Notes under the pieces: generated by a model
What the model saw: the letters and a program-made list of their open reading frames with translations, nothing else
Told to the model about the DNA's origin: nothing
The model's database searches: none
Source of the DNA: a virus
Length of the DNA stretch: 64,000 nt
Direction: 5' to 3' (one strand)
IMG/VR virus record: IMGVR_UViG_3300022752_000022
Coordinates: 32,001 to 96,000 of that record
Program-made: the position numbers and the translations under genes
In this document: positions 22,176 through 34,328 of the stretch, in pieces
Layout: the number at the start of each line of letters is the position of its first letter
How positions within the stretch are numbered: the first letter of the stretch is position 1

Positions 22176-23072
22176 ATGAGCAATTTTTTCACATCTTTGG
22201 TGGAACAGTTGAAAGATGAAGATACGAAAATTCTTGCGGATGGTGGTGCGTCTGCTGAGTACACTGGTTGTATTGACACTGGATCTTATGCTCTTAATGC
22301 TCTACTTAGCGGTAGTATTTATGGCGGTGTTCCTAATAATAAAGTAACAGCATTTGCAGGCGAATCTGCTACTGGTAAAACTTTTTTTGTCTTGGGTGTT
22401 GTCAAACGATTTTTAGATGATCATCCTGAAGGTGGTGTGATTTACTTTGATACTGAAGCAGCAGTCACCAAGAACATGATGGAATCAAGAGGTATTGATA
22501 CAAAACGTGTAGTCATCTCTGAGCCTGATACAATTCAAAAGTTTAGACATACAGCGTTACAAATTATAGAAAAGTATTCTGCACAGTCTAAAGATAAACG
22601 AAAGCCTATGATGATGGTGCTTGATTCTCAAGGCCAATTATCTTCAACGAAAGAAATGGAAGATAGTTCAGATGGTAAAGAAACACGAGACATGACAAAA
22701 TCTCAGTTGATCAAAGCAACGTTTCGTGTTCTTAATTTGAAACTTGCAAAGATCAATGTGCCACTCATTGTAACGAATCATGTGTATGATGTTGTTGGAT
22801 GTGCATTGGCAGGAACTAAAATTCAAACTATAGACAAATTAAAAAATATTGAAGATATTTTGGTTGGCGATTATGTAAGAACCATGGTTGGAAATAAAAA
22901 AGTAACTCAAACTTTTAAGTATGAGTGTGACCATTATTATGAAATCGAAATGGAAAATAATTACAAATATTATTTGACTGAAGAACACAAATTAATGATT
23001 CAAGATGGAACATGGAAAAAAGTAAAAGATTTAACAGTAGAAGATGTTGTCATTAATGTCGGAACTATTTAA
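22176..23072 (+). CDS. uvsX: UvsX (RecA-like) N-terminal half fused to split-intein N fragment
   Basis: GESATGKT Walker A; extein ends NHVYDVVG; intein starts CALAGTKI (22800) and has LTEEHK block B. Confidence 0.95.
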   Translation: MSNFFTSLVEQLKDEDTKILADGGASAEYTGCIDTGSYALNALLSGSIYGGVPNNKVTAFAGESATGKTFFVLGVVKRFLDDHPEGGVIYFDTEAAVTKNMMESRGIDTKRVVISEPDTIQKFRHTALQIIEKYSAQSKDKRKPMMMVLDSQGQLSSTKEMEDSSDGKETRDMTKSQLIKATFRVLNLKLAKINVPLIVTNHVYDVVGCALAGTKIQTIDKLKNIEDILVGDYVRTMVGNKKVTQTFKYECDHYYEIEMENNYKYYLTEEHKLMIQDGTWKKVKDLTVEDVVINVGTI

Positions 23073-23681
23073 TATTTTTCTGAGATGAAAATAGGAGTAT
23101 GGTGATTTGTTTGAAGCCTCTCTAATAGAATCATATATGATACCATCAACAGATATTTTCTTAGATTTTGGACTATTTTTTCTTTTAGCAATTTTAGAAG
23201 ATTCTGTTGACATGGCGTTTTTCCATTTATCTGATTTTTTTCTCGCATCAGATAATTTTTGAGACATATTATTTTTTATATAATTTTCTCTCATTAATTC
23301 TCTTAAATTTTCATCAATATGTCTATTTTGAAATTTTTCATTTTTCCAAGCAAGTTTTAATGACTCGGATATTTTTTGCTTATGACTATCAGTAATAATT
23401 TGTTTTTTTCTGGATTCTCGTATCTTATTAATCCATTTTTCTTTTCTGCTTGAATTTAAGAGAAATTTATTAAATCCATTATTAGCTAATAATATGCGTT
23501 CTTCTTCAGTCATTTTTCTACCAGAAAGACATTCCCAAGCAATTTTGTCTTCGATTTTTCTATACTTTTCCCAAAGAATTCTATGCGCTTCTGCGTGTTC
23601 TTCTATAGTTAATTCTACTAAATTCTCTGAATCATCTGATCCACCCATATGTTTTGGGATAATGTGATGAATATGTTTCAT
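23031..23681 (-). CDS. Free-standing HNH homing endonuclease (Mob-like, with NUMOD-type DNA-binding repeats)
   Basis: HIHHIIPKHMGGSDDSENLVELTIEEHAEAH; HKQKISES and VDGIIYDSIREAS motifs. Confidence 0.9.
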   Translation of the reverse strand: MKHIHHIIPKHMGGSDDSENLVELTIEEHAEAHRILWEKYRKIEDKIAWECLSGRKMTEEERILLANNGFNKFLLNSSRKEKWINKIRESRKKQIITDSHKQKISESLKLAWKNEKFQNRHIDENLRELMRENYIKNNMSQKLSDARKKSDKWKNAMSTESSKIAKRKNSPKSKKISVDGIIYDSIREASNKSPYSYFHLRKILNSSDINDNIFYC

Positions 23682-23715
23682 AGATGTGTTCGTTTTACTA
23701 TATTGTAGACATGAT

Positions 23716-23723
23716 TATTTATA
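23716..23723 (-). promoter_or_regulatory. T4-type late promoter for the antisense HNH gene
   Basis: TATTTATA on + strand (TATAAATA on -), about 35 nt upstream of the ATG at 23681. Confidence 0.75.
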
Positions 23724-23740
23724 AAAAAGGAGTTTTTAAA

Positions 23741-24298
23741 ATGACTAGTGGTTTAAAAATTAAAAACATTAAAAAAATTGAGTGTGAAAATACTTCAGTT
23801 TTTGATTTTGAAGTTGAAGATGCACATCATTATATTCTAGAGGATGGCACAGTATCTCACAATTCTTATGTGCCAACGAAAGAAATGAGTGGTGGTTCAG
23901 GTTTGAAGTATACAGCATCCACAATTATATATCTTTCAAAGAAGAAAGAAAAAGACGGCACTGAAGTGATTGGTAACATTGTAAAAGCAAGATTGTATAA
24001 GAGCCGATTGACTAAGGAAAATAAAGATGTGGAAGTCAAAATCACCTATGACAAAGGGTTGGATCGACACTATGGTCTCCTCGACATCGCAGAAAAATAT
24101 AACATACTCAAAAAAGTATCAACACGATACGAATTACCAGACGGATCAAAAGTATTCGGTAAAGCAATCAACGACAATCCAGAAAAGTATTGGACCAAAG
24201 AACTCCTGGATATGATTGATGAAGTATGCAAGAAAGAATTCATGTACGGTCAACTTAATGAAATACCAGCTGAGGAGTTAGATAATGAAACTGAATGA
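23741..24298 (+). CDS. uvsX: Split-intein C fragment fused to UvsX C-terminal half
   Basis: [20 protein letters not shown]...[22 protein letters not shown]|[16 protein letters not shown]...KSRLTKE. Confidence 0.95.
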
Positions 24299-26215: not shown

Positions 26216-26359
26216 ATGGCTGAGAAAGAACTTTTGATTGAGTTTTATCGTGATTTTATTGCATCAATCATTGACACAGGTGATTTAGAATTATTCCTAA
26301 AGACGATGAATGAAGAAGTTGAAATGCTGATGCCTCCAAATGGTGAAACGATTCACTAA
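26216..26359 (+). CDS. Small hypothetical protein
   Basis: 47 aa after GGAG SD, directly downstream of the promoter. Confidence 0.5.
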   Translation: MAEKELLIEFYRDFIASIIDTGDLELFLKTMNEEVEMLMPPNGETIH

Positions 26360-26485
26360 TATGATAGAATACATACTGAAATATGATATTGCTATGAGGC
26401 TCTGGAATGCTTACTCTAGCATCAATATGACATTGACTGAAATGTTTTTACCACCAACCGTATTATTAATCGTACTATATTTTAT

Positions 26486-26836
26486 ATGATTATACACTCA
26501 CCGACCAAATTCAGGGGCAAGAAGAAGTGGTCCTCCGCTGACGCAAAGCGAAAGGATGCTGAACTTCAAGCGGAGTGGCAAGAATTCTTAAGCAAAAATC
26601 AGCCCACCATGAAGACTGTAAAAAAGTCTACATACACGCCTCCAAAGACTTATGTCCGTGATTTACCAGTCTATCCAAGTCACTCCACCACGCTACCAGC
26701 CACTTGCACAAAGCCGGTTGAGGGTAAAGTGTACACTGGCACTAAAATGATCGGCATAGGGACTCTCCACAAGTCCAATGCAGTGCCTATCTTCAGCGAA
26801 GAGGAAGCTAAGGATCAAGCGACGATGCGCCGATGA
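26486..26836 (+). CDS. Conserved phage hypothetical protein
   Basis: VYTGTKMIGIGTLHKSNAVPIF...MRR. Confidence 0.75.
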   Translation: MIIHSPTKFRGKKKWSSADAKRKDAELQAEWQEFLSKNQPTMKTVKKSTYTPPKTYVRDLPVYPSHSTTLPATCTKPVEGKVYTGTKMIGIGTLHKSNAVPIFSEEEAKDQATMRR

Positions 26837-26838
26837 AT

Positions 26839-26846
26839 TATAAATA
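26839..26846 (+). promoter_or_regulatory. T4-type late promoter
   Basis: TATAAATA 25 nt upstream of 26872. Confidence 0.8.
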
Positions 26847-26871
26847 GTCCATTCAATCACTGGATGGACTA

Positions 26872-27369
26872 ATGAAATTTTTAGAATACATAGCCGAAGC
26901 AACATCAGGCAAAAATCTACATATGGAGCACATTGAGGATAATATTCTCAATGGCGGCGTCTACGGCGCTAGGGAAGCAATCAACTTCCTACGCAAAGTC
27001 CGTGACATGCTTGCGGGCAATTCCGAATCCAAAGTCAATATCACAGTCAAATGGGATGGATGTATCCACGAAGATACAATCGTTCTCACAAATCTTGGTG
27101 ATATGACAATCAAAGAAATAGTAGAGCGATGTCAATGGGACGATAGTCTTATGGTCATGGGCAAGGAATTGGATCTACCATCAAAACCTAATCGCATGGT
27201 TCCTATTTTGGGCGGAATGTTTCAGAATGGAAATAAAAAATGGGTTGAAATTCAACTAGAAGATGGAACAAAATATAAAATGACTGAAGATCATGAGGTG
27301 CATACAGCTAATCGTGGATGGGTAAAAGCATGTGAATTGACTAAAGATGACGATATTACCGAATTATAA
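26872..27369 (+). CDS. RNA-ligase-like (DUF6267-type) protein N-part fused to split-intein N fragment
   Basis: KNLHMEHIED...TVKWDG|CIHEDTIV (Cys at 27061)...MTEDHEV...GWVKACELTKDD. Confidence 0.9.
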   Translation: MKFLEYIAEATSGKNLHMEHIEDNILNGGVYGAREAINFLRKVRDMLAGNSESKVNITVKWDGCIHEDTIVLTNLGDMTIKEIVERCQWDDSLMVMGKELDLPSKPNRMVPILGGMFQNGNKKWVEIQLEDGTKYKMTEDHEVHTANRGWVKACELTKDDDITEL

Positions 27370-27403
27370 AGTGTGATGGTAATCATCTCAAAATGTCTTC
27401 TTT

Positions 27404-27411
27404 TATAAATA
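27404..27411 (+). promoter_or_regulatory. T4-type late promoter
   Basis: TATAAATA upstream of the HNH gene at 27431. Confidence 0.75.
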
Positions 27412-27430
27412 AAATAAAAAGGAGAATGCG

Positions 27431-28066
27431 ATGACTGACGAAATGAAAGAAAAGTATATTCAAAAATATAAAGAAACATATTCGGTTTCTGAAATTTTAA
27501 GAACATTCAATGATGGAATTGGAAGAAAAAAAATCATAAATCTTTTAAAGGAAGAAGGTATATACGAGGGATTAAATGGACCAAATTATCTGAAAAAGAA
27601 AGTTGAAAATAATGAAAAAATAATGATGAAAAAATATGGTGTTATTAATTGGGGACAAACAAAGGATGGCGGTTACAAAAGCCAAAATAAAATACCATAT
27701 AAAAAAATATCTTATTTAAATGAAGAATATAAAGAATACAAAAATCAAGTTGAAAAAGAAACAAAACTTAATATAAAAAATATTGATTTACCTGAATATT
27801 GTTTTTACACAGGAATACAATTTGCAGATGTTGAGGGTCCCGTTAATCCGAATGATCCAAGAAAGAGAAGTGTTGATCATAAAATTCCAGTAATTATTTG
27901 TTATTTAAATGGCTTTTCTACAAATCAAGCTAGTGATTTAACTAACTTGATTTTCGTTTTGAAATATGTCAATTCAATTAAATCAAACACTGATCACGAG
28001 TCATTTTTGAAAATAACACATAAGATTAGGGAGGTATTTGTAAATGAGGGTTATAAGAGTAAATAA
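27431..28066 (+). CDS. Free-standing HNH-type homing endonuclease
   Basis: CFYTG...SVDHKIP...TNL...VNSIKSN; KKYGV motif; very AT-rich; lies between the intein halves. Confidence 0.75.
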   Translation: MTDEMKEKYIQKYKETYSVSEILRTFNDGIGRKKIINLLKEEGIYEGLNGPNYLKKKVENNEKIMMKKYGVINWGQTKDGGYKSQNKIPYKKISYLNEEYKEYKNQVEKETKLNIKNIDLPEYCFYTGIQFADVEGPVNPNDPRKRSVDHKIPVIICYLNGFSTNQASDLTNLIFVLKYVNSIKSNTDHESFLKITHKIREVFVNEGYKSK

Positions 28067-29219
28067 ATTAGAAGAAAAATATACTCAGTATGATATTAGT
28101 ACGTCATCTAATAATTTTTATGTGCAAACAAATTCCGGTAGATATGTATTGATTCATAATTCTCCAGCCATTTTTGCTGGTCAAGATCCGTCAGACGGTC
28201 AATTCTTTGTTGCAAAGAAAGGCATCTTCAACAAAAATCCAAAACTCTACAAGACGAATGCTGAGATTGATGCAGACACTTCAGGTGATTTAGCAGACAA
28301 ACTCAAAGCATGTCTTCAATACTTGCCTGAAATTGGCATCAAAGGTGTCATCCAAGGCGACTTAATGTATACTCAAAGTGATCTAAAAAATGTAACAATT
28401 GATGGTGTAAAGTATACAACATTTCATCCAAATACCATTGTTTATGCGGTGCCTTATGATAGTGACATTGGAAGAACAATCCGCAATTCAAAAATGGGCA
28501 TTGTATGGCATACTAGATATGAAGGCGATACATTAGAAAATATGAAAGCAGTCTTCGGAACTGATATACTTGCTGGTATGAAAAAGTCTAGAAATGTCTG
28601 GTTTGACAATGCAGATTATAAAGATGTTTCAGGCAAAGCGTCCATGACAAAAGAGGAGACTGCTGAAGTGACAAAGGTGCTATCACAAGCAGGAAAAGTT
28701 TTCAATGCAATTGATGGCCGATTTTTAGATTCGCTTTCAGATTATCCAGGCTTCGGTGAAGAGTTGAATACAAGAATTAAAGCATTCAATAATTCTAAAA
28801 TTAAACAGCGCCAAAAAATTACAAATGTTCATAGTCATGTAACAGAAATGCTTGACGCACTCTTAGCACATTATCAGAGTGAGTTTGATAGCAAGAAAAA
28901 GCCTGATGCAAAGAAACGTGCTGAAGTCAAAGTCAATGCTATCAAAAGTATGATAAAATCAAAATACAAAGTTCAATTTGAACATATCTTTACGCTAATG
29001 AATTTGTTAGTTGACGCTAAAGATATGCTCAGTAAGAAATTAGATGAAGTAAAGAGTGTAAACACATTTTTATTAACCAAATCTGGATATCAAGTCACTG
29101 GTGTTGAGGGTTATGTCGCAATTGACAAATTGACTGGTGGTGCCGTGAAGATTGTAGATAGACTACAGTTTAGTTATGCTAATTTTTCTCCAGATGTAAT
29201 CAAAGGATGGGAGAGATAG
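28044..29219 (+). CDS. Split-intein C fragment fused to RNA-ligase-like protein C-part
   Basis: MRVIRVNKLEEKYTQYDISTSSNNFYV...LIHN|SPAIFAG; QGDLMY, EGYV, VKIVDR. Confidence 0.9.
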   Translation: MRVIRVNKLEEKYTQYDISTSSNNFYVQTNSGRYVLIHNSPAIFAGQDPSDGQFFVAKKGIFNKNPKLYKTNAEIDADTSGDLADKLKACLQYLPEIGIKGVIQGDLMYTQSDLKNVTIDGVKYTTFHPNTIVYAVPYDSDIGRTIRNSKMGIVWHTRYEGDTLENMKAVFGTDILAGMKKSRNVWFDNADYKDVSGKASMTKEETAEVTKVLSQAGKVFNAIDGRFLDSLSDYPGFGEELNTRIKAFNNSKIKQRQKITNVHSHVTEMLDALLAHYQSEFDSKKKPDAKKRAEVKVNAIKSMIKSKYKVQFEHIFTLMNLLVDAKDMLSKKLDEVKSVNTFLLTKSGYQVTGVEGYVAIDKLTGGAVKIVDRLQFSYANFSPDVIKGWER

Positions 29220-29220
29220 C

Positions 29221-30522
29221 ATGGCACTATTCAATAAGAACACACAGCAATATTTAAATCAATCAAAAACACTTTTTGATGTTGTCATGCTTGCCGATCA
29301 ATACGGCAATCGGATTAGCGCAGCAAATCCGACAGGCGTTGCAACTGATGCGTTTGGTAGAATGAGAGTATCGACACCATTAACGCTTTTTGATTCGTCA
29401 CATCGCTATAAAGACAATGGCCTTTGGGCGACTGCAAATACTGCAAATACAACTTATGCGTTTTCATCAAATGAAGGTTTAATTAATTTAACTTTGACGA
29501 ATGGTGCAGCAAATAATGAAATTATTCGTGAAACGACAAAAGTTATGTCCTATCAACCAGGAAAATCGTTACTGATTTTGAACACTATGGTGATGAATGA
29601 AGCGAAGGAAAATTTAAGGCAGCGTGTTGGATACTTTGGCGCAAACAACGGAATCTTTTTAGAACAATCTGGAAATACAATCAGTTTTGTTGAAAGGTCT
29701 ATTGTAACTGGTTCAGTTGTAGACACATTAGCAATTCAAACAGATTGGAATTATGATAAACTAGATGGCACTGGTCCATCTGGAGTAATTTTAGATTTAG
29801 CAAAAGCGCAAATTTTCTGGACAGATATTGAATGGTTGGGTGTTGGCGATGTTCGTTGTGGTTTTGTTATCAATGGTCAATTTATTCATTGTCATTCATT
29901 TCGCCATGCAAATCAAATAACTTCAACATATATTACGACAGCATCACTACCTTTGCGATATGAAATTAAAAATGTTGGTACAGTTTCTGGCGGTAGCACA
30001 ATGAAACAAATTTGTTCTTCGGTTGTGACTGAGGGTGGGTATGAACTCCGTGGAGCACAGCAAGCAATAGGTACAGCAATTAATGCAGCAAGAACGTTGA
30101 CTACAGCAGGAACTTTTTATCCAATTGTTTCATTAAGATTAAAATCTACAGCATTAGATGCAGTTGTGATTCTTACAGCACTCTCTACGATAGCAGATAC
30201 TTCCAGTAATTTTAATTGGCAAGTTCGTGCAAACTGTACAACAGGTGGAGGAGCATGGGTGAGTGCTGGAACAGATAGTGCTGTTGAATATAACATTACA
30301 GGAACTAGCACATCAGGCGGAAAAACATTAGCATCTGGCTATTTTACTGCAACTCAGAGCACCAGTGTGTCTGTTGATATTCTTAAAGAAGCATTATTCA
30401 AATTTCAACTAGAAAGAAATGGTTTGACTGAAACACCATATGAAATTTCTTTAGTGTTAGCATCAAAAACAGGTAATGAAGGTGTGTATGCTTCCATGGA
30501 CTGGGAAGAAATTTCTAGGTAA
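29221..30522 (+). CDS. Probable virion structural protein (beta-rich)
   Basis: DAFGRMRVSTP, YQPGKS, EWLGVG; Thr/Ser/Gly-rich; in the late operon. Confidence 0.6.
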   Translation: MALFNKNTQQYLNQSKTLFDVVMLADQYGNRISAANPTGVATDAFGRMRVSTPLTLFDSSHRYKDNGLWATANTANTTYAFSSNEGLINLTLTNGAANNEIIRETTKVMSYQPGKSLLILNTMVMNEAKENLRQRVGYFGANNGIFLEQSGNTISFVERSIVTGSVVDTLAIQTDWNYDKLDGTGPSGVILDLAKAQIFWTDIEWLGVGDVRCGFVINGQFIHCHSFRHANQITSTYITTASLPLRYEIKNVGTVSGGSTMKQICSSVVTEGGYELRGAQQAIGTAINAARTLTTAGTFYPIVSLRLKSTALDAVVILTALSTIADTSSNFNWQVRANCTTGGGAWVSAGTDSAVEYNITGTSTSGGKTLASGYFTATQSTSVSVDILKEALFKFQLERNGLTETPYEISLVLASKTGNEGVYASMDWEEISR

Positions 30523-30536
30523 TAAGGAGAGATAGT

Positions 30537-31355
30537 ATGGCAGCATCAGAAGGCGTAGATTTAGAATGGGCAATTGTAGAATATTCTAGAATTAGATTAA
30601 ACAAACAAACGAAAACGACTAGAAATTATTCTTCAAAAATTGATACGCAGGCTAAAGAATGCGTAGATCATATATTTAAGAAAATGGGAAAGACGTTTGA
30701 TATATATCACTCAGACGAACAAGTGCCAGGTATAGGTTCAATCTACGCCAAACCTGAGCCTAAGACTGATATTGTAATATTTACTAAATCAAATAAATAT
30801 TTTGTATCAGTTAAAATGGAAGGTGGCATACAACTTGCATCCGGTCAGGGTGCATCAACAGCGGAACTTTTTGAGTCTGCTGCTGAATCATTAAAAAATG
30901 CAAATCAGAGAAAAGTTCTCACTTCTATAGTGAAAGAATTAAAAACTATGCCGACAAGATTACTCTCTACGAGCAATTTTGATAGAATTGTGTCTGAAGG
31001 TAATGAAAAAATCATAAAAGAATTTATAAAGAATGGTAAGATTATCCAAGATAAAAGTTACGAGTATTGGTTAGAAAATAATAAACCGCATCTTCTAGGC
31101 GCACTACTTAAATTTGTTAAAGAAAATGACGAATACTACAGCGCAATCATATACGAAGCGTTGACAGGTGAAAAAACTCTTAAAAGTTTTAAAGGCGCCG
31201 TTGCAAATTCTATTATTTCACCATCTGGATTTTATGAAATTGATGATGCATACGTTAAAAAATTGAAACCTAAGATTAAAATGGATTTACGAGCCAAATC
31301 TAGAGGTGGTATTTCAAGTATCGCATTTAGAATTGAAACCAGAGGAAGCGTTTAG
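30537..31355 (+). CDS. Putative PD-(D/E)xK endonuclease
   Basis: EPKTDIV...FVSVKM motif. Confidence 0.55.
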   Translation: MAASEGVDLEWAIVEYSRIRLNKQTKTTRNYSSKIDTQAKECVDHIFKKMGKTFDIYHSDEQVPGIGSIYAKPEPKTDIVIFTKSNKYFVSVKMEGGIQLASGQGASTAELFESAAESLKNANQRKVLTSIVKELKTMPTRLLSTSNFDRIVSEGNEKIIKEFIKNGKIIQDKSYEYWLENNKPHLLGALLKFVKENDEYYSAIIYEALTGEKTLKSFKGAVANSIISPSGFYEIDDAYVKKLKPKIKMDLRAKSRGGISSIAFRIETRGSV

Positions 31356-31421: not shown

Positions 31422-34328
31422 ATGAAAGATAACGTTATTATATCATTTGGTCGTATGAATCCCATGACAAATGGTCATGAGAAACTTGCAACCAAACTTC
31501 AATCAGTAGCAAAGCAGAAACACGGTGATGCTATGCTCTATCTATCACATTCCACAAATCCAAAGAAAGATCCGCTAGATTTTGACACAAAAGTCAAATT
31601 CGCTAAGAAGGCCTTTGGTCCAATGGTAAAAAACTCACCAGCGAGAACAATTTTAGAAGTTGCAAAAGAATTGACAGGTAAGTATAAGAATCTCATTGTC
31701 GTTGTAGGCAGCGACAGAGTTTCAGAATTTCAATCTTTACTCACAAAATATAACGGTAAAGATTATAAGTTTGAGAACATAGAAGTCGTATCAGCAGGAG
31801 AGCGTGATCCAGATGCAGAAGGTGTTACAGGAATGTCTGGTTCAAAAATGAGAGCGTTCGCTTCCGCTAACGATTTTGAAAAGTTTAAACAAGGTGTACC
31901 GTCCAAACTATCCGACGCTGACGCAAAAGCGTTATTTACAGCAGTGAGAAAAGGTATGAAACTAGACGAACAAGTAGACGAATCAATTGTAAGTTTCGCA
32001 CAAAGAAGGCAGCGTTCCGCTAGATTTAAGCGTATGCAGCAAAAATTGCTTCGTACCAGAATGCTTCAAGCGAAACGTGCTGCTGATCCAGAAAGATTAA
32101 AACGTAGGGCTGGCAAACTCGCATATCAGTTTTTTAGAAATAGGGCCGCAGGTGGAAAAGATTATGCTTCGTTAAGTGCCGGCGAAAAAATTATGATTGA
32201 TACAAGACTGCAAAAAATGGTGCCAGCGATTCGAAAATTTGCTTCAAGACTTGTGCCGCTAGCAAGAAAGAAAGATATTCAGCGTAGACAATCTATGATG
32301 ATGCATCGGGCTGAAGAATTAAATCAAATTTTCGCTGAGTGTTTCATTGTAGAAGCAACTAAAGTGCCTCAAGATCCACACATTAAAGGCAAAGAAGGCA
32401 CACAACCTAAAGTTTATTACAAAGGCTTAGACAAAGATACAAAAGAAAAACGATTGGCCCATTTCCGTAAATATGGACCAATGTCAGACCGTGATCCAAA
32501 TGCGTATGTGGACGCACCAGGAGATAAAGAAGCAAGAGAAAAAGGTATGCCGCAATCTAAGCATACTCAAAAGTATAAGCAGATGTACGGTGAAGCAGTA
32601 GCACCACAAGAAAGACAAAAGAACTCAAGATTAGAACAGTTGGTTCGATTAGGTTTAGCAGATGCAAAAATGCTCTCTACAATTAAAAGAGCTGTCGCTA
32701 AATTAAACTCAGGTGACACAATGTCACCGCAAGAGCGTGATGCTACAAATAACCTTTTATCAACACTTCTAGATATGGTAACAAGTGCAGATGCTTTGTT
32801 TAGAATGACAAAGACGCAACTTCAGAAAGAATCTTATGTAGTAGAAAAAGGCGAATACGACGATTACGAAGAAATTGATGGCCTAGAAATGGCTCAAATT
32901 GAAATAGAAAACATCATTCAAGATTCTGAAGATTTGCTTGAAATGATGGATGAAATGGATGAAGAGCCTGAAGCATGGGTGCTATCTAAGATCACTAAAG
33001 CAGCAGATTATATTTCAAGTGTCAGAGACTATCTTCAGTTTGAAGATGATTATGATTATGAGAACGGTGAAGAAGAAGAGGATGACGGTGAGTATGGTAT
33101 GGAAGATGAAATGGAAGTTGAAGACTATCTTGCTTCTATGACACAAGAAGAATTTGAGGATGATGAAGATTTAAGAGCGATTTTTGAAGAAGTTGAAGGC
33201 TTAAAGAAGAAAGCGGAGAAGTCTGGTATTTCTTATAGCATTCTCAAACAAGTGTATAATCGTGGTATGGCTGCATGGCAAACAGGTCATAGACCAGGTA
33301 CAACAGCGCAACAGTGGGCTTTTGCAAGAGTCAATTCGTTTATCACAAAAGGTAAAGGCACATGGGGTGGTGCTGATAGCGATCTAGCAGCAAAAGTTAA
33401 AAAGACAAAAGACACTAACGAAGCATTCTCAAAATTCGCTGAAGCATTAGAATGGGGCACCGATGAATTAAGAAAAGCATATGCTACTGCTACGCCAGGT
33501 CAGTCGCAAGATATACTTATGGCTAAGTATTCAGCAAACTCTGCATTAGATGTGATGAATAATGCTAACACACAAAGACTTTATAAACTTTATAGCGAAG
33601 AACAAGAGTTGCTAGATATCTTTGCTGAAGTCTCGGATGTATCTGAAGCATTCAAATGGCACCAAGAAGAAAGCAAACCACTCCACGAAACAGTGTATCG
33701 TGTTGGTTCAGAAAAATATTTTGAATTCTGGCGTGTAGCAAGACAAATGTATAATGAAGGATTGATGGAGAACATTGATCCAATAGATAAAGCGATTCTT
33801 GAAGAAACGGATTTAGGTGAAATTGTAGAACATGAGGGTGGCTATGTGCCACTTGATTGCCCAATGCTTGAAGAAGGCCTTAACATTTGGAAATATAATC
33901 CTGTGACTGGTTTATGGAGAATTGAACGTGACGTAACTCCAGAAACAAAAGATAAATGGCTTGAAATTTATAGAAAAGATGATCCTAAAGGCAAGTATGT
34001 TGTTTCAGCAAAAAAGCCTTCAAGCAAAGCACACCTAAGAGAAGAAGACGAAAAGAATCCACCACTCAATGAACCAAAACGTGGTGGACCAAAGAAGTTC
34101 TATGTGTACGTTAAAGATCCTAGTACAGGTAATATAAAAAAGGTTACATGGGGCGATACGACAGGATTGTCGGTCAAATTGAATGATCCTGAAGCAAGAA
34201 AGTCATTTGCAGCAAGACATCAATGCTCTATGCAAAAAGATAGAACAAGCGCAGCATATTGGGCTTGCAATACTCCACGATATGCTAAACAACTAGGATT
34301 GTCAGGAGGTGGGGATTTCTACTGGTGA
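31422..34328 (+). CDS. Multidomain protein with N-terminal HIGH-type nucleotidyltransferase (cytidylyltransferase/NMNAT-like)
   Basis: FGRMNPMTNGH, VVGSDR, SAGERDPD, MSGSKMR; followed by many small domains. Confidence 0.85.
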   Translation: MKDNVIISFGRMNPMTNGHEKLATKLQSVAKQKHGDAMLYLSHSTNPKKDPLDFDTKVKFAKKAFGPMVKNSPARTILEVAKELTGKYKNLIVVVGSDRVSEFQSLLTKYNGKDYKFENIEVVSAGERDPDAEGVTGMSGSKMRAFASANDFEKFKQGVPSKLSDADAKALFTAVRKGMKLDEQVDESIVSFAQRRQRSARFKRMQQKLLRTRMLQAKRAADPERLKRRAGKLAYQFFRNRAAGGKDYASLSAGEKIMIDTRLQKMVPAIRKFASRLVPLARKKDIQRRQSMMMHRAEELNQIFAECFIVEATKVPQDPHIKGKEGTQPKVYYKGLDKDTKEKRLAHFRKYGPMSDRDPNAYVDAPGDKEAREKGMPQSKHTQKYKQMYGEAVAPQERQKNSRLEQLVRLGLADAKMLSTIKRAVAKLNSGDTMSPQERDATNNLLSTLLDMVTSADALFRMTKTQLQKESYVVEKGEYDDYEEIDGLEMAQIEIENIIQDSEDLLEMMDEMDEEPEAWVLSKITKAADYISSVRDYLQFEDDYDYENGEEEEDDGEYGMEDEMEVEDYLASMTQEEFEDDEDLRAIFEEVEGLKKKAEKSGISYSILKQVYNRGMAAWQTGHRPGTTAQQWAFARVNSFITKGKGTWGGADSDLAAKVKKTKDTNEAFSKFAEALEWGTDELRKAYATATPGQSQDILMAKYSANSALDVMNNANTQRLYKLYSEEQELLDIFAEVSDVSEAFKWHQEESKPLHETVYRVGSEKYFEFWRVARQMYNEGLMENIDPIDKAILEETDLGEIVEHEGGYVPLDCPMLEEGLNIWKYNPVTGLWRIERDVTPETKDKWLEIYRKDDPKGKYVVSAKKPSSKAHLREEDEKNPPLNEPKRGGPKKFYVYVKDPSTGNIKKVTWGDTTGLSVKLNDPEARKSFAARHQCSMQKDRTSAAYWACNTPRYAKQLGLSGGGDFYW

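Follow-up and report, generated by a model that had tools for sequence, protein, structure and literature searches.

The locus analysed here raises the question of how a phage can keep an enzyme gene that is broken in two within its own active-site motif, and of what enzyme such a gene might encode. It lies in IMGVR_UViG_3300022752_000022, a metagenome-derived virus genome, of which we analysed record positions 32,001-96,000; this stretch of 64,000 nt is referred to below as the window, and positions are counted from its first letter. An earlier note on this DNA had described a ligase-like gene fractured by a split intein and an endonuclease gene, and on re-reading of the sequence every coordinate holds for the claimed open reading frames, the intein residue Cys1, the TEDH block, the terminal HN and Ser+1. 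The features of the locus are as follows.

26839..26846, + strand: T4-late-type promoter motif TATAAATA, an exact, intergenic match 25 nt 5' of the N-half start
26872-27369, + strand: N-half ORF, 165 aa, comprising the 63-aa N-extein and the 102-aa intein N-half
26872..27060, + strand: N-extein, 63 aa, with the C-terminal TVKWDG (motif I, Lys60); DUF6267 profile positions 1-47
27061..27369, + strand: intein N-half (IntN), 102 aa plus stop codon, with the Cys1 codon at 27061 and block B TEDH
27370..27430, + strand: 61-nt spacer with TATAAATA at 27404-27411 and the Shine-Dalgarno sequence AAGGAG at 27419-27424, serving the endonuclease gene
27431..28066, + strand: free-standing homing-endonuclease gene, 211 aa, with HTH and HNH-type fold
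28044-29219, + strand: C-half ORF, 391 aa, comprising the 39-aa intein C-half and the 352-aa C-extein
28044..28160, + strand: intein C-half (IntC), 39 aa, ending in VLIHN, with GGAGG at 28030-28034
28161..29219, + strand: C-extein, 352 aa, whose first residue is Ser+1 (codon 28161); DUF6267 profile positions 48-373 (E 4.9e-85)
Within the C-extein: candidate motifs III (QGD), IIIa, IV (EGYV) and V (VKIVDR), with a predicted 130-aa helical insert between IIIa and IV

The start codon of IntC is located inside the endonuclease ORF, the overlap being 23 nt, and the GC content of the cassette is 0.289 compared with 0.362 for the window. The Pfam DUF6267 profile is divided exactly between the two outer ORFs, and Pfam found no other family in the exteins. 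A megablast comparison of this locus with the phage collection gave no match, and an NCBIfam scan of five proteins named none of them. We believe that the fractured gene is real and probably functional, and that the whole is likely to be explained by a mobile split-intein cassette, a trans-spliced ligase-like enzyme and a homing endonuclease. Gene callers will annotate such loci as two truncated hypothetical proteins.

The form of the unbroken gene is given by P0001, an intein-free allele encoding an uninterrupted protein of exactly the 415 aa that had been predicted for the spliced product. Its identity to the window gene is 100% over the N-extein (residues 1-63) and 97% over the C-extein, and its junction reads VKWDGAPAIF, in agreement with the KWDG[AS]PA expected of intein-free homologues. 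Both P0001 and the DUF6267 profile align straight across the junction, and the insertion point lies within motif I. At the DNA level, the flanks of the 1100-bp insertion (27061-28160) are each colinear with L004, the contig of a near-identical sister phage in which the 415-aa gene is unbroken, and from the empty to the occupied site the junction shows GGC>GGA (silent) and GCA>TCT (Ala>Ser) and no other change. By the Pfam split, by P0001 and by the L004 DNA, the two exteins together make up one continuous homologue, with nothing missing and nothing duplicated between them. Given that the record is a virus genome derived from a metagenome, an assembly artefact or a chimeric contig might be suspected. 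However, dozens of assemblies, independent of one another and made from different samples, show the three-ORF layout, and the flanks are colinear with the sister contig; we consider such an artefact barely conceivable.

As expected of splicing-competent halves, a Cys directly follows VKWDG, and IntC ends in LIHN followed by Ser. Comparison of the halves with intein models, as the earlier note had proposed, recognised IntN through the NrdJ-1 intein 8ubs (E 2.3e-9 over 95 aa by sequence comparison). The Pfam Intein_splicing score of IntN (22.4 bits, E 1.1e-4) falls below the cut-off of 35.8, as is to be expected because IntN is a half domain. The net charge is -8 for IntN and +2 for IntC, the polarity described for NrdJ-1, IMPDH-1 and NrdA-2 (Dassa, London, Stoddard, Schueler-Furman and Pietrokovski, 2009; PMC2677866). 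With Cys1, Ser+1 and many natural variants, these NrdJ-1-related inteins are a new split-intein family, and such variants are useful for protein engineering.

The cassette recurs at the identical site in other phages: of the 37 IMG/VR loci with the endonuclease family, 26 are DUF6267 genes fractured in this way, at 30 the endonuclease lies in or directly beside a DUF6267 gene, and P0220, P0254 and P0268 are additional fractured alleles. Because the same layout recurs in 26 independent IMG/VR loci, a chance architecture is excluded. Cys1, the terminal Asn and Ser+1 are retained in all 20 non-duplicate, fully parsed alleles, which share the IntC family and the overlap of endonuclease and IntC; the TxxH of block B was found in 19 of them, that of L034 being missed by the search pattern, and the C-exteins of the recurring alleles are 31-51% identical to that of the window.

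It might be argued that the cassette is a decaying relic whose halves no longer splice, so that the gene is either dead or encodes a non-covalent two-chain enzyme. Such an enzyme has been described for Aeromonas phage Aeh1, in which the HNH endonuclease gene mobE is located in a split nrdA (Gibb and Edgell, 2007; Friedrich et al., 2007; both as cited in PMC2677866), which shows that split proteins without inteins can work. As far as that citing account goes, Aeh1 resembles our locus in that a free-standing HNH-type endonuclease with separate late regulation splits a gene of a T4-like phage into two ORFs, but its two halves associate non-covalently and contain no intein, whereas our endonuclease gene lies between the halves of a split intein. 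Endonuclease decay at related loci also points towards a relic, the gene being frameshifted in L041, truncated in L049 and missing from L008. However, both ORFs of the window are intact, the splicing residues are kept in alleles with exteins as divergent as those above, and position +1, which is Ala in intein-free alleles, is Ser wherever the intein is present. The break, moreover, falls in the structure model within a beta-hairpin loop of the active-site motif, and L008 has both intein halves in spite of having lost the endonuclease, which indicates that splicing is maintained independently of the nuclease. We therefore regard a relic as very unlikely and favour a cassette whose halves still splice.

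The protein encoded between the intein halves is predicted to have an N-terminal HTH (residues 1-44) and a C-terminal, cysteine-poor HNH domain (beta-beta-alpha-Me) at about residues 96-199. Its structure model (pLDDT 93.6) matches Gme HNH, 4h9d, at Z 8.6 over 85 of 90 residues (rmsd 2.6 A), with PacI, T5 SciA, McrA and the Cas9 HNH as further fold matches, and residues D149, H150, N172, N181 and K184 (a DH..N..N pattern) are invariant in the family. The label HNH is thus upheld by fold and by invariant residues but not by the Pfam HNH models (PF01844, PF13395 and PF14279), which missed the endonuclease of the window with E allowed up to 5 and, with E up to 1, recognised none of the 45 family members. 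A Foldseek search of the PDB with the endonuclease model was not significant, and Pfam and PHROGs were uninformative, with only one weak, sub-threshold match to DUF2951. That the free-standing gene has a late-type promoter of its own is borne out by the copy of TATAAATA ahead of its ORF; the motif is not enriched across the window (9 found vs 5.4 expected), and its intergenic placement alone is meaningful. Scans for sigma-70 promoters and terminators gave results at chance level, and no hairpin masking the ribosome-binding site was found upstream of the endonuclease, where the fold is no better than that of shuffles (z -0.97).

Comparison among alleles bears on the mobility of the cassette. 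L013 is 76/74% identical to the window in the intein and 73% in the endonuclease but only 50-55% in the exteins, and the closest extein relative has no intein. The endonuclease family is also found free-standing, just upstream of intact DUF6267 copies, in L028-30 and L035. Judged from this genomic placement, the family is apparently dedicated to the DUF6267 gene. It occurs in four states, namely full, decayed, absent from a split intein, and free-standing beside an intact target, and these constitute an unusually complete set of natural intermediates for models of gene-breaking and collaborative homing.

Based on these observations, we propose the following model. A mobile cassette of 1100 bp, made up of IntN, an independently promoted HTH-HNH endonuclease gene and IntC, lies in-frame between Gly63 and residue 64 of a late gene that is conserved among T4-like aquatic phages, three residues past the invariant Lys of KxDG. 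The polypeptides of 165 and 391 aa would associate through their oppositely charged intein halves, and trans-splicing by Cys1, TEDH, the terminal Asn and Ser+1 would yield a 415-aa enzyme with the junction VKWDG-SPAIF. Lys60 belongs to the N-half and motifs III-V to the C-half, so that neither polypeptide alone would have a complete active site. The endonuclease may cut, near the junction GGC|GCA, the intein-free alleles carried by co-infecting relatives; repair of the cut would copy the cassette into them.

The layout is of a known type. Dassa et al., 2009 described fractured genes for gp41-1 to gp41-9, NrdJ-1/2, NrdA-1 to NrdA-7, IMPDH-1 to IMPDH-3, DnaE, DNA ligase and terminase, and those genes share with ours a single strand, an N-extein with IntN, a short spacer, an endonuclease with its own control elements, IntC with the C-extein, and overlapping frames. 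They too come mostly from T4-like aquatic phages and are interrupted at conserved active-site motifs; our IntN and IntC, of 102 and 39 aa, lie within the ranges of 88-105 and 33-54 reported there (PMC2677866), and an endonuclease-less allele exists in both cases (gp41-7 in that study, L008 here). In contrast, the endonuclease family described here also stands free next to intact targets, and those authors do not name DUF6267; they list one locus, situated upstream of nrdB and coding for a protein of unknown function, that may or may not be DUF6267. What is new is the host family, DUF6267, with an HNH-type endonuclease. We found no paper that names DUF6267, nor any on such an arrangement in a DUF6267 gene or in this nuclease family. 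A fractured Felix01-like DNA ligase is listed by Dassa et al., 2009, so that the ligase superfamily at large already has a precedent for a split intein.

What, then, is the protein that is broken? DUF6267 is conserved in cyanomyophages, pelagimyophages and related phages, being present in 391 phage records and in over 2600 cluster representatives. The AF2 model of the intact protein (pLDDT 93, pTM 0.90) was matched in a wide VIA-align search by RNA and DNA ligases in 24 of the 26 top rows, with NgrRnl first (Z 8.6), and in a second-look fold search by ligases in all 50 best rows, with Z up to 8.9; the VIA tool itself grades Z values of 7-9 as middling. RNA ligases come before DNA ligases among the best matches, 182-186 residues being aligned to the NgrRnl adenylyltransferase domain, and the BFVD matches outside the DUF6267 family itself are viral RNA ligases. 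The nucleotidyltransferase-domain fold is shared with NgrRnl/Rnl5 (5cot), T4 Rnl2 (2hvq), TbREL1 (1xdn), Trl1 (6n67) and T4 Rnl1 (9do4) at Z 7.0-8.9 over 166-206 aligned residues; the structure prediction suggested in the earlier note thus found a ligase-type nucleotidyltransferase fold. Foldseek against the PDB was not significant for this model, the best ligase having an E of 0.06, and usable signal came from VIA-align and BFVD only.

The motifs follow the fold in part. Among 114 sequences, down to 34% identity, K60, D62, G380 and K393 are invariant, and G63 (more than 90% of sequences), Q128, G129, D130 and E379 are nearly so; conservation extends, in the expected order, to the candidate motifs Q128-G129-D130, F151..Y158, E379-G380 and K393. 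The claimed motif I (K60, D62) therefore stands, and motifs IV (G380) and V (K393) are candidates; candidate motif III, however, carries Asp instead of the Glu of ligases, and motif V, K-I-V-D-R, has no second Lys of KxK. With the ATP-dependent RNA ligases DUF6267 shares the KxDG Lys, the EG of its candidate motif IV, the Lys of its candidate motif V and the lack of an OB domain, the last of which places it nearer to the RNA-ligase type. It differs from them in having no sequence or profile similarity to them, in K-x-V-D-R in place of K-x-K, and in a helical bundle of about 130 aa which, in the model, is inserted between IIIa and IV and is to our knowledge not seen in known ligases; N-terminal helices with an invariant His20 are also peculiar to the family. 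Two DUF6267 profiles run against PDB sequences gave spurious low-complexity matches only and no solved ligase, and hhalign against a 63-sequence Rnl2 alignment (PF09414) gave a probability of 0.3%, which suggests that within the superfamily DUF6267 forms a family of its own, related at the level of fold only. Membership of the ligase family is thus supported by fold and by invariant motif residues, and not by Rnl2 profile homology; the 'RNA' in the label RNA-ligase-like goes further than this evidence. The most probable reading, predicted from the model, is that DUF6267 is a polynucleotide ligase-like enzyme acting through a nucleotidylated lysine, and the family thereby gains a testable function.

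The anatomy could be right and the protein nonetheless not a polynucleotide ligase: it might nucleotidylylate a protein or a small molecule, act jointly with the linked HxGH nucleotidyltransferase in a reaction that is capping-like or NAD-linked, or be mainly a packaged internal virion protein. The lack of profile-level ligase homology, the non-canonical motif V and the large helical insert would suit such a role, as would the late promoter with the capsid-targeting-like N-terminus described below and the persistent linkage or fusion of DUF6267 to cytidylyltransferase-like (NMNAT/PPAT-type) domains. In addition, DLP6 has gp30 too, and L008 has Rnl2 and RtcB both beside DUF6267, so DUF6267 is not simply 'the' ligase; a role as stand-in for a missing gp30 DNA ligase was rejected, as DLP6 has both. 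On the other hand, the best structural neighbours are all polynucleotide ligases, the KxDG Lys and Asp, G380 and the motif V Lys do not vary, with the KxDG Gly and E379 nearly constant, and no second recognisable ligase is encoded in the complete genome. In one of its fusions, DUF6267 is joined to a P-loop domain of polynucleotide-kinase type (AAA_33), and a kinase-type domain with a ligase is the classic healing-and-sealing pairing. We consider a reaction other than ligation unlikely, though by no means negligible, and retain the ligase-like enzyme as our preferred reading.

The N-extein begins with MKFLEYIAE, which resembles the capsid targeting sequence of the T4 internal proteins, MKTYQEFIAE (Mullaney and Black, 1996, via PMC9026906; 10.1101/2021.01.19.427310), and is one residue shorter. 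The apparent likeness extends to the order aromatic, aromatic, Ile-x-Glu, to a late promoter and to a gp21-type protease, which this phage genome encodes. With a pattern of about 10 N-terminal residues, aromatic at 4 and 7 and Ile/Leu-x-Glu at 8-10, 2 of 299 ORFs in the genome were found, the second of which adjoins the gp21-type protease gene; the strict pattern is present in only 43 of 114 DUF6267 family members. It is possible, though rather doubtful, that DUF6267 is a capsid-packaged, injected enzyme for nucleic-acid end-joining or nucleotidylation that belongs, like the HxGH nucleotidyltransferase polyprotein linked to it, to a late kit for 'repair or counter-defence'. If so, the capsid-targeting peptide would be on the N-extein and the catalytic body on the C-extein, and in fractured alleles trans-splicing would be needed both for the active site and for prohead loading. 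[quoted passage not shown] In the relative L035, the N-terminus, MKTFKTYISE, has the exact T4 spacing. A second split-intein pair, very different from that described here, is present in uvsX of the same genome.

The interrupted DUF6267 gene is a real fractured gene, and the three ORFs that the earlier note had laid out were exact in every case:

26872-27369, N-half ORF: 63 residues with TVKWDG at the end, followed by a 102-residue segment with Cys first
27404-27411, TATAAATA upstream of the endonuclease ORF
27431-28066, endonuclease ORF, 211 aa
28044-29219, C-half ORF: 39 residues with VLIHN at the end, followed by Ser and 351 more residues

The codon for Cys1 of the intein is at 27061, and TEDH is present in the 102-residue segment. 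AAGGAG also precedes the endonuclease ORF, while the C-half ORF starts 23 nt within the endonuclease ORF, with GGAGG ahead of its start. The DUF6267 profile of Pfam is split between the ORFs (positions 1-47 in the N-half, 48-373 in the C-half), and the match to PHROG 455 is divided in the same way. The N-half of the intein (IntN) has a match at E 2.3e-9 in the NrdJ-1 split intein, whose structure is solved; the IntN score against the Pfam intein model is under the cut-off, as expected because it is a half domain. With net charges of -8 for IntN and +2 for the C-half (IntC), the pair has the charge polarity reported for NrdJ-1, IMPDH-1, and NrdA-2 (Dassa et al., 2009; PMC2677866). Directly 3' of the C-half ORF, a gene at 29221-30522 hits the 'virion structural protein' family PHROG 1645 (E 3.8e-148), and no family from Pfam or NCBIfam.

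A protein search with the C-extein revealed an uninterrupted allele, P0001, on the sister phage contig L004. P0001 has 100% identity to the window in the N-extein and 97% in the C-extein, and reads VKWDGAPAIF over the junction. At 415 aa, and aligned over the junction, it bears out the 415-aa joined product claimed previously. Given that L004 4484-5188 is colinear with window 26355-27059, and L004 5193-7574 with 28164-30543, the insertion is exactly 27061-28160 (1100 bp; GC 0.289 compared to 0.362 in the window). The only differences at the junction are GGC>GGA, which is silent, and GCA>TCT; the resulting Ala>Ser change supplies the +1 nucleophile. Alignment of more distant intein-free homologues (C48C1, Melnitz, and DLP6) also runs straight over the junction.

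This arrangement recurs. Scanning IMG/VR with an alignment of the endonuclease gave 37 loci, 26 of which carry a fractured DUF6267 gene with the endonuclease between an N-fragment, with its K-x-D-G|C end, and a C-fragment that opens with an IntC of ~38 aa ending HN|S-P. Cys1, the terminal Asn, and Ser+1 are kept in all 20 non-duplicate alleles parsed in full, and the TxxH block B in 19 of the 20, that of L034 having been missed by the search pattern, at C-extein identities to the window of only 31-51%. Most alleles also keep the overlap, of 22-45 nt, between the start of IntC and the end of the endonuclease ORF. In four loci (L028-30 and L035) the same endonuclease family is free-standing, immediately upstream of an intact, intein-less DUF6267 gene, which may represent either an ancestor of the fractured arrangement or an alternative to it. 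Locus L008 (3355-5170) has both intein halves, separated by a 130-nt gap, without an endonuclease, in a neighbourhood encoding an Rnl2-type RNA ligase, RtcB, and UvdE; decaying endonucleases are frameshifted in L041 and truncated in L049. L013 is 76/74% identical to the window in the intein and 73% in the endonuclease but only 50-55% in the exteins, and the closest extein relative has no intein. Active homing, with selection to keep splicing, would be expected to leave this pattern of sequences, and the fractured gene is probably functional.

The endonuclease had been called an HNH enzyme. No informative match was found in Pfam, PHROGs, or NCBIfam, where a weak, sub-threshold DUF2951 was the only Pfam match, and HNH models match 0 of 45 family members. 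However, D149-H150, N172, N181, and K184 are invariant in the family alignment, AF2 predicts the structure with high confidence (pLDDT 93.6), and for residues 96-199 the top superposition is with the Gme HNH nicking endonuclease (85/90 residues at rmsd 2.6 A, Z 8.6), followed by PacI, T5 SciA, McrA, and Cas9 HNH domains; Foldseek gave a probability of 0.99 for its top row. For these reasons we accept it as a predicted HNH enzyme, of a cysteine-poor variant missed by HMMs. In structure comparison residues 1-44 form a helix-turn-helix as in small terminases and transposases.

The intact host protein, modelled with an alignment of 114 sequences, gave pLDDT 93.1 and pTM 0.90. In a structure search over 48,161 PDB representatives, independent of Foldseek, RNA/DNA ligases filled 24 of the 26 top rows (NgrRnl 5cot, Z 8.6; Trl1, 7.8; T4 Rnl2, 7.6; T4 Rnl1, 7.0; TbREL1, 7.0), with DNA ligases ranking after RNA ligases (Z 5.6-6.6). 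On the second-look list all 50 rows were ligases (Z up to 8.9), with alignments to the adenylyltransferase domain of NgrRnl covering 182-186 residues, and in BFVD viral RNA ligases came next after the family's own members. K60, D62, G380, and K393 are invariant in the 114 sequences, down to 34% identity, and G63, Q128-G129-D130, and E379 nearly so. In the model the intein junction lies in the loop of the K60-bearing beta-hairpin, the IIIa-like motif and motif IV are set apart by an inserted helical bundle (residues 227-358), and there is no OB domain; motif V has one Lys only. PDB sequence searches and hhalign against an Rnl2 alignment found nothing, and the E-values of Foldseek against the PDB were not significant. 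The ligase-family reading of the earlier note is supported by the ligase-type fold and the invariant K60 and D62, and the label 'RNA' is not established. From the predicted structure we conclude that the DUF6267 protein forms a family of its own within the fold class of covalent nucleotidyltransferases; the locus thereby offers a fold-level function for a widespread phage DUF.

Some phages carry DUF6267 as a fusion with a P-loop kinase domain (AAA_33/Zeta type), and others combine it in one protein with cytidylyltransferase-like and DUF5824 domains (P0123, P0125, and P0196 among the metagenomic relatives; also S-PM2). The latter two domains are those of the window's 968-aa gene at 31422-34328, and a cytidylyltransferase-like gene lies just downstream of DUF6267 in the window and in relatives. 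With Pfam models, the complete 149.6 kb genome showed no recognisable DNA ligase, whether ATP- or NAD-dependent, nor an RNA ligase of the Rnl1 or Rnl2 type; DLP6 carries both gp30 and DUF6267.

The N-terminus, MKFLEYIAE (window 26872), is similar to the T4 capsid targeting sequence (CTS), MKTYQEFIAE, and the phage encodes a gp21-type prohead protease. Among the genome's 299 ORFs with 60 aa or more, only 2 have the strict CTS pattern, the second being a small basic ORF adjoining the protease. Fused DUF6267 members have I/L/M-x-E ahead of the domain start, and the strict pattern occurs in only 43 of the 114 family members. Capsid targeting of DUF6267 through this N-terminus is a possible lead. 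Upstream of the window (genome 26857-28790), MS-MKTFKSYISE and MIRFKQFLEE start two small basic ORFs beside the protease.

Fractured genes of this kind are already known, and DUF6267 is a further host. The layout is that described by Dassa et al., 2009 (PMC2677866), whose hosts were gp41, NrdA, NrdJ, IMPDH, DnaE, a Felix01-like DNA ligase, terminase, and one unnamed protein, with GIY-YIG or Vsr-like endonucleases; HNH enzymes were predicted to be capable of the same role. Our literature search found no paper mentioning DUF6267, and nothing closer than that study on split inteins with HNH or uvsX.

The complete genome of this IMG/VR virus (149,598 bp, with terminal repeats) has two split inteins only, the second being in a uvsX/recA-like gene that spans 22176-24298:

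22176-23072, N-extein and 90-aa IntN
23031-23681, minus strand, HNH + I-TevI-type DNA-binding endonuclease gene, between the halves
23716-23723, minus strand, TATAAATA of this endonuclease gene
23741 (ATG) to 24298, IntC and C-extein

The two IntN segments are only 35% identical over 37 aa, and on contig L004 the RecA-like gene is intact (352 aa).
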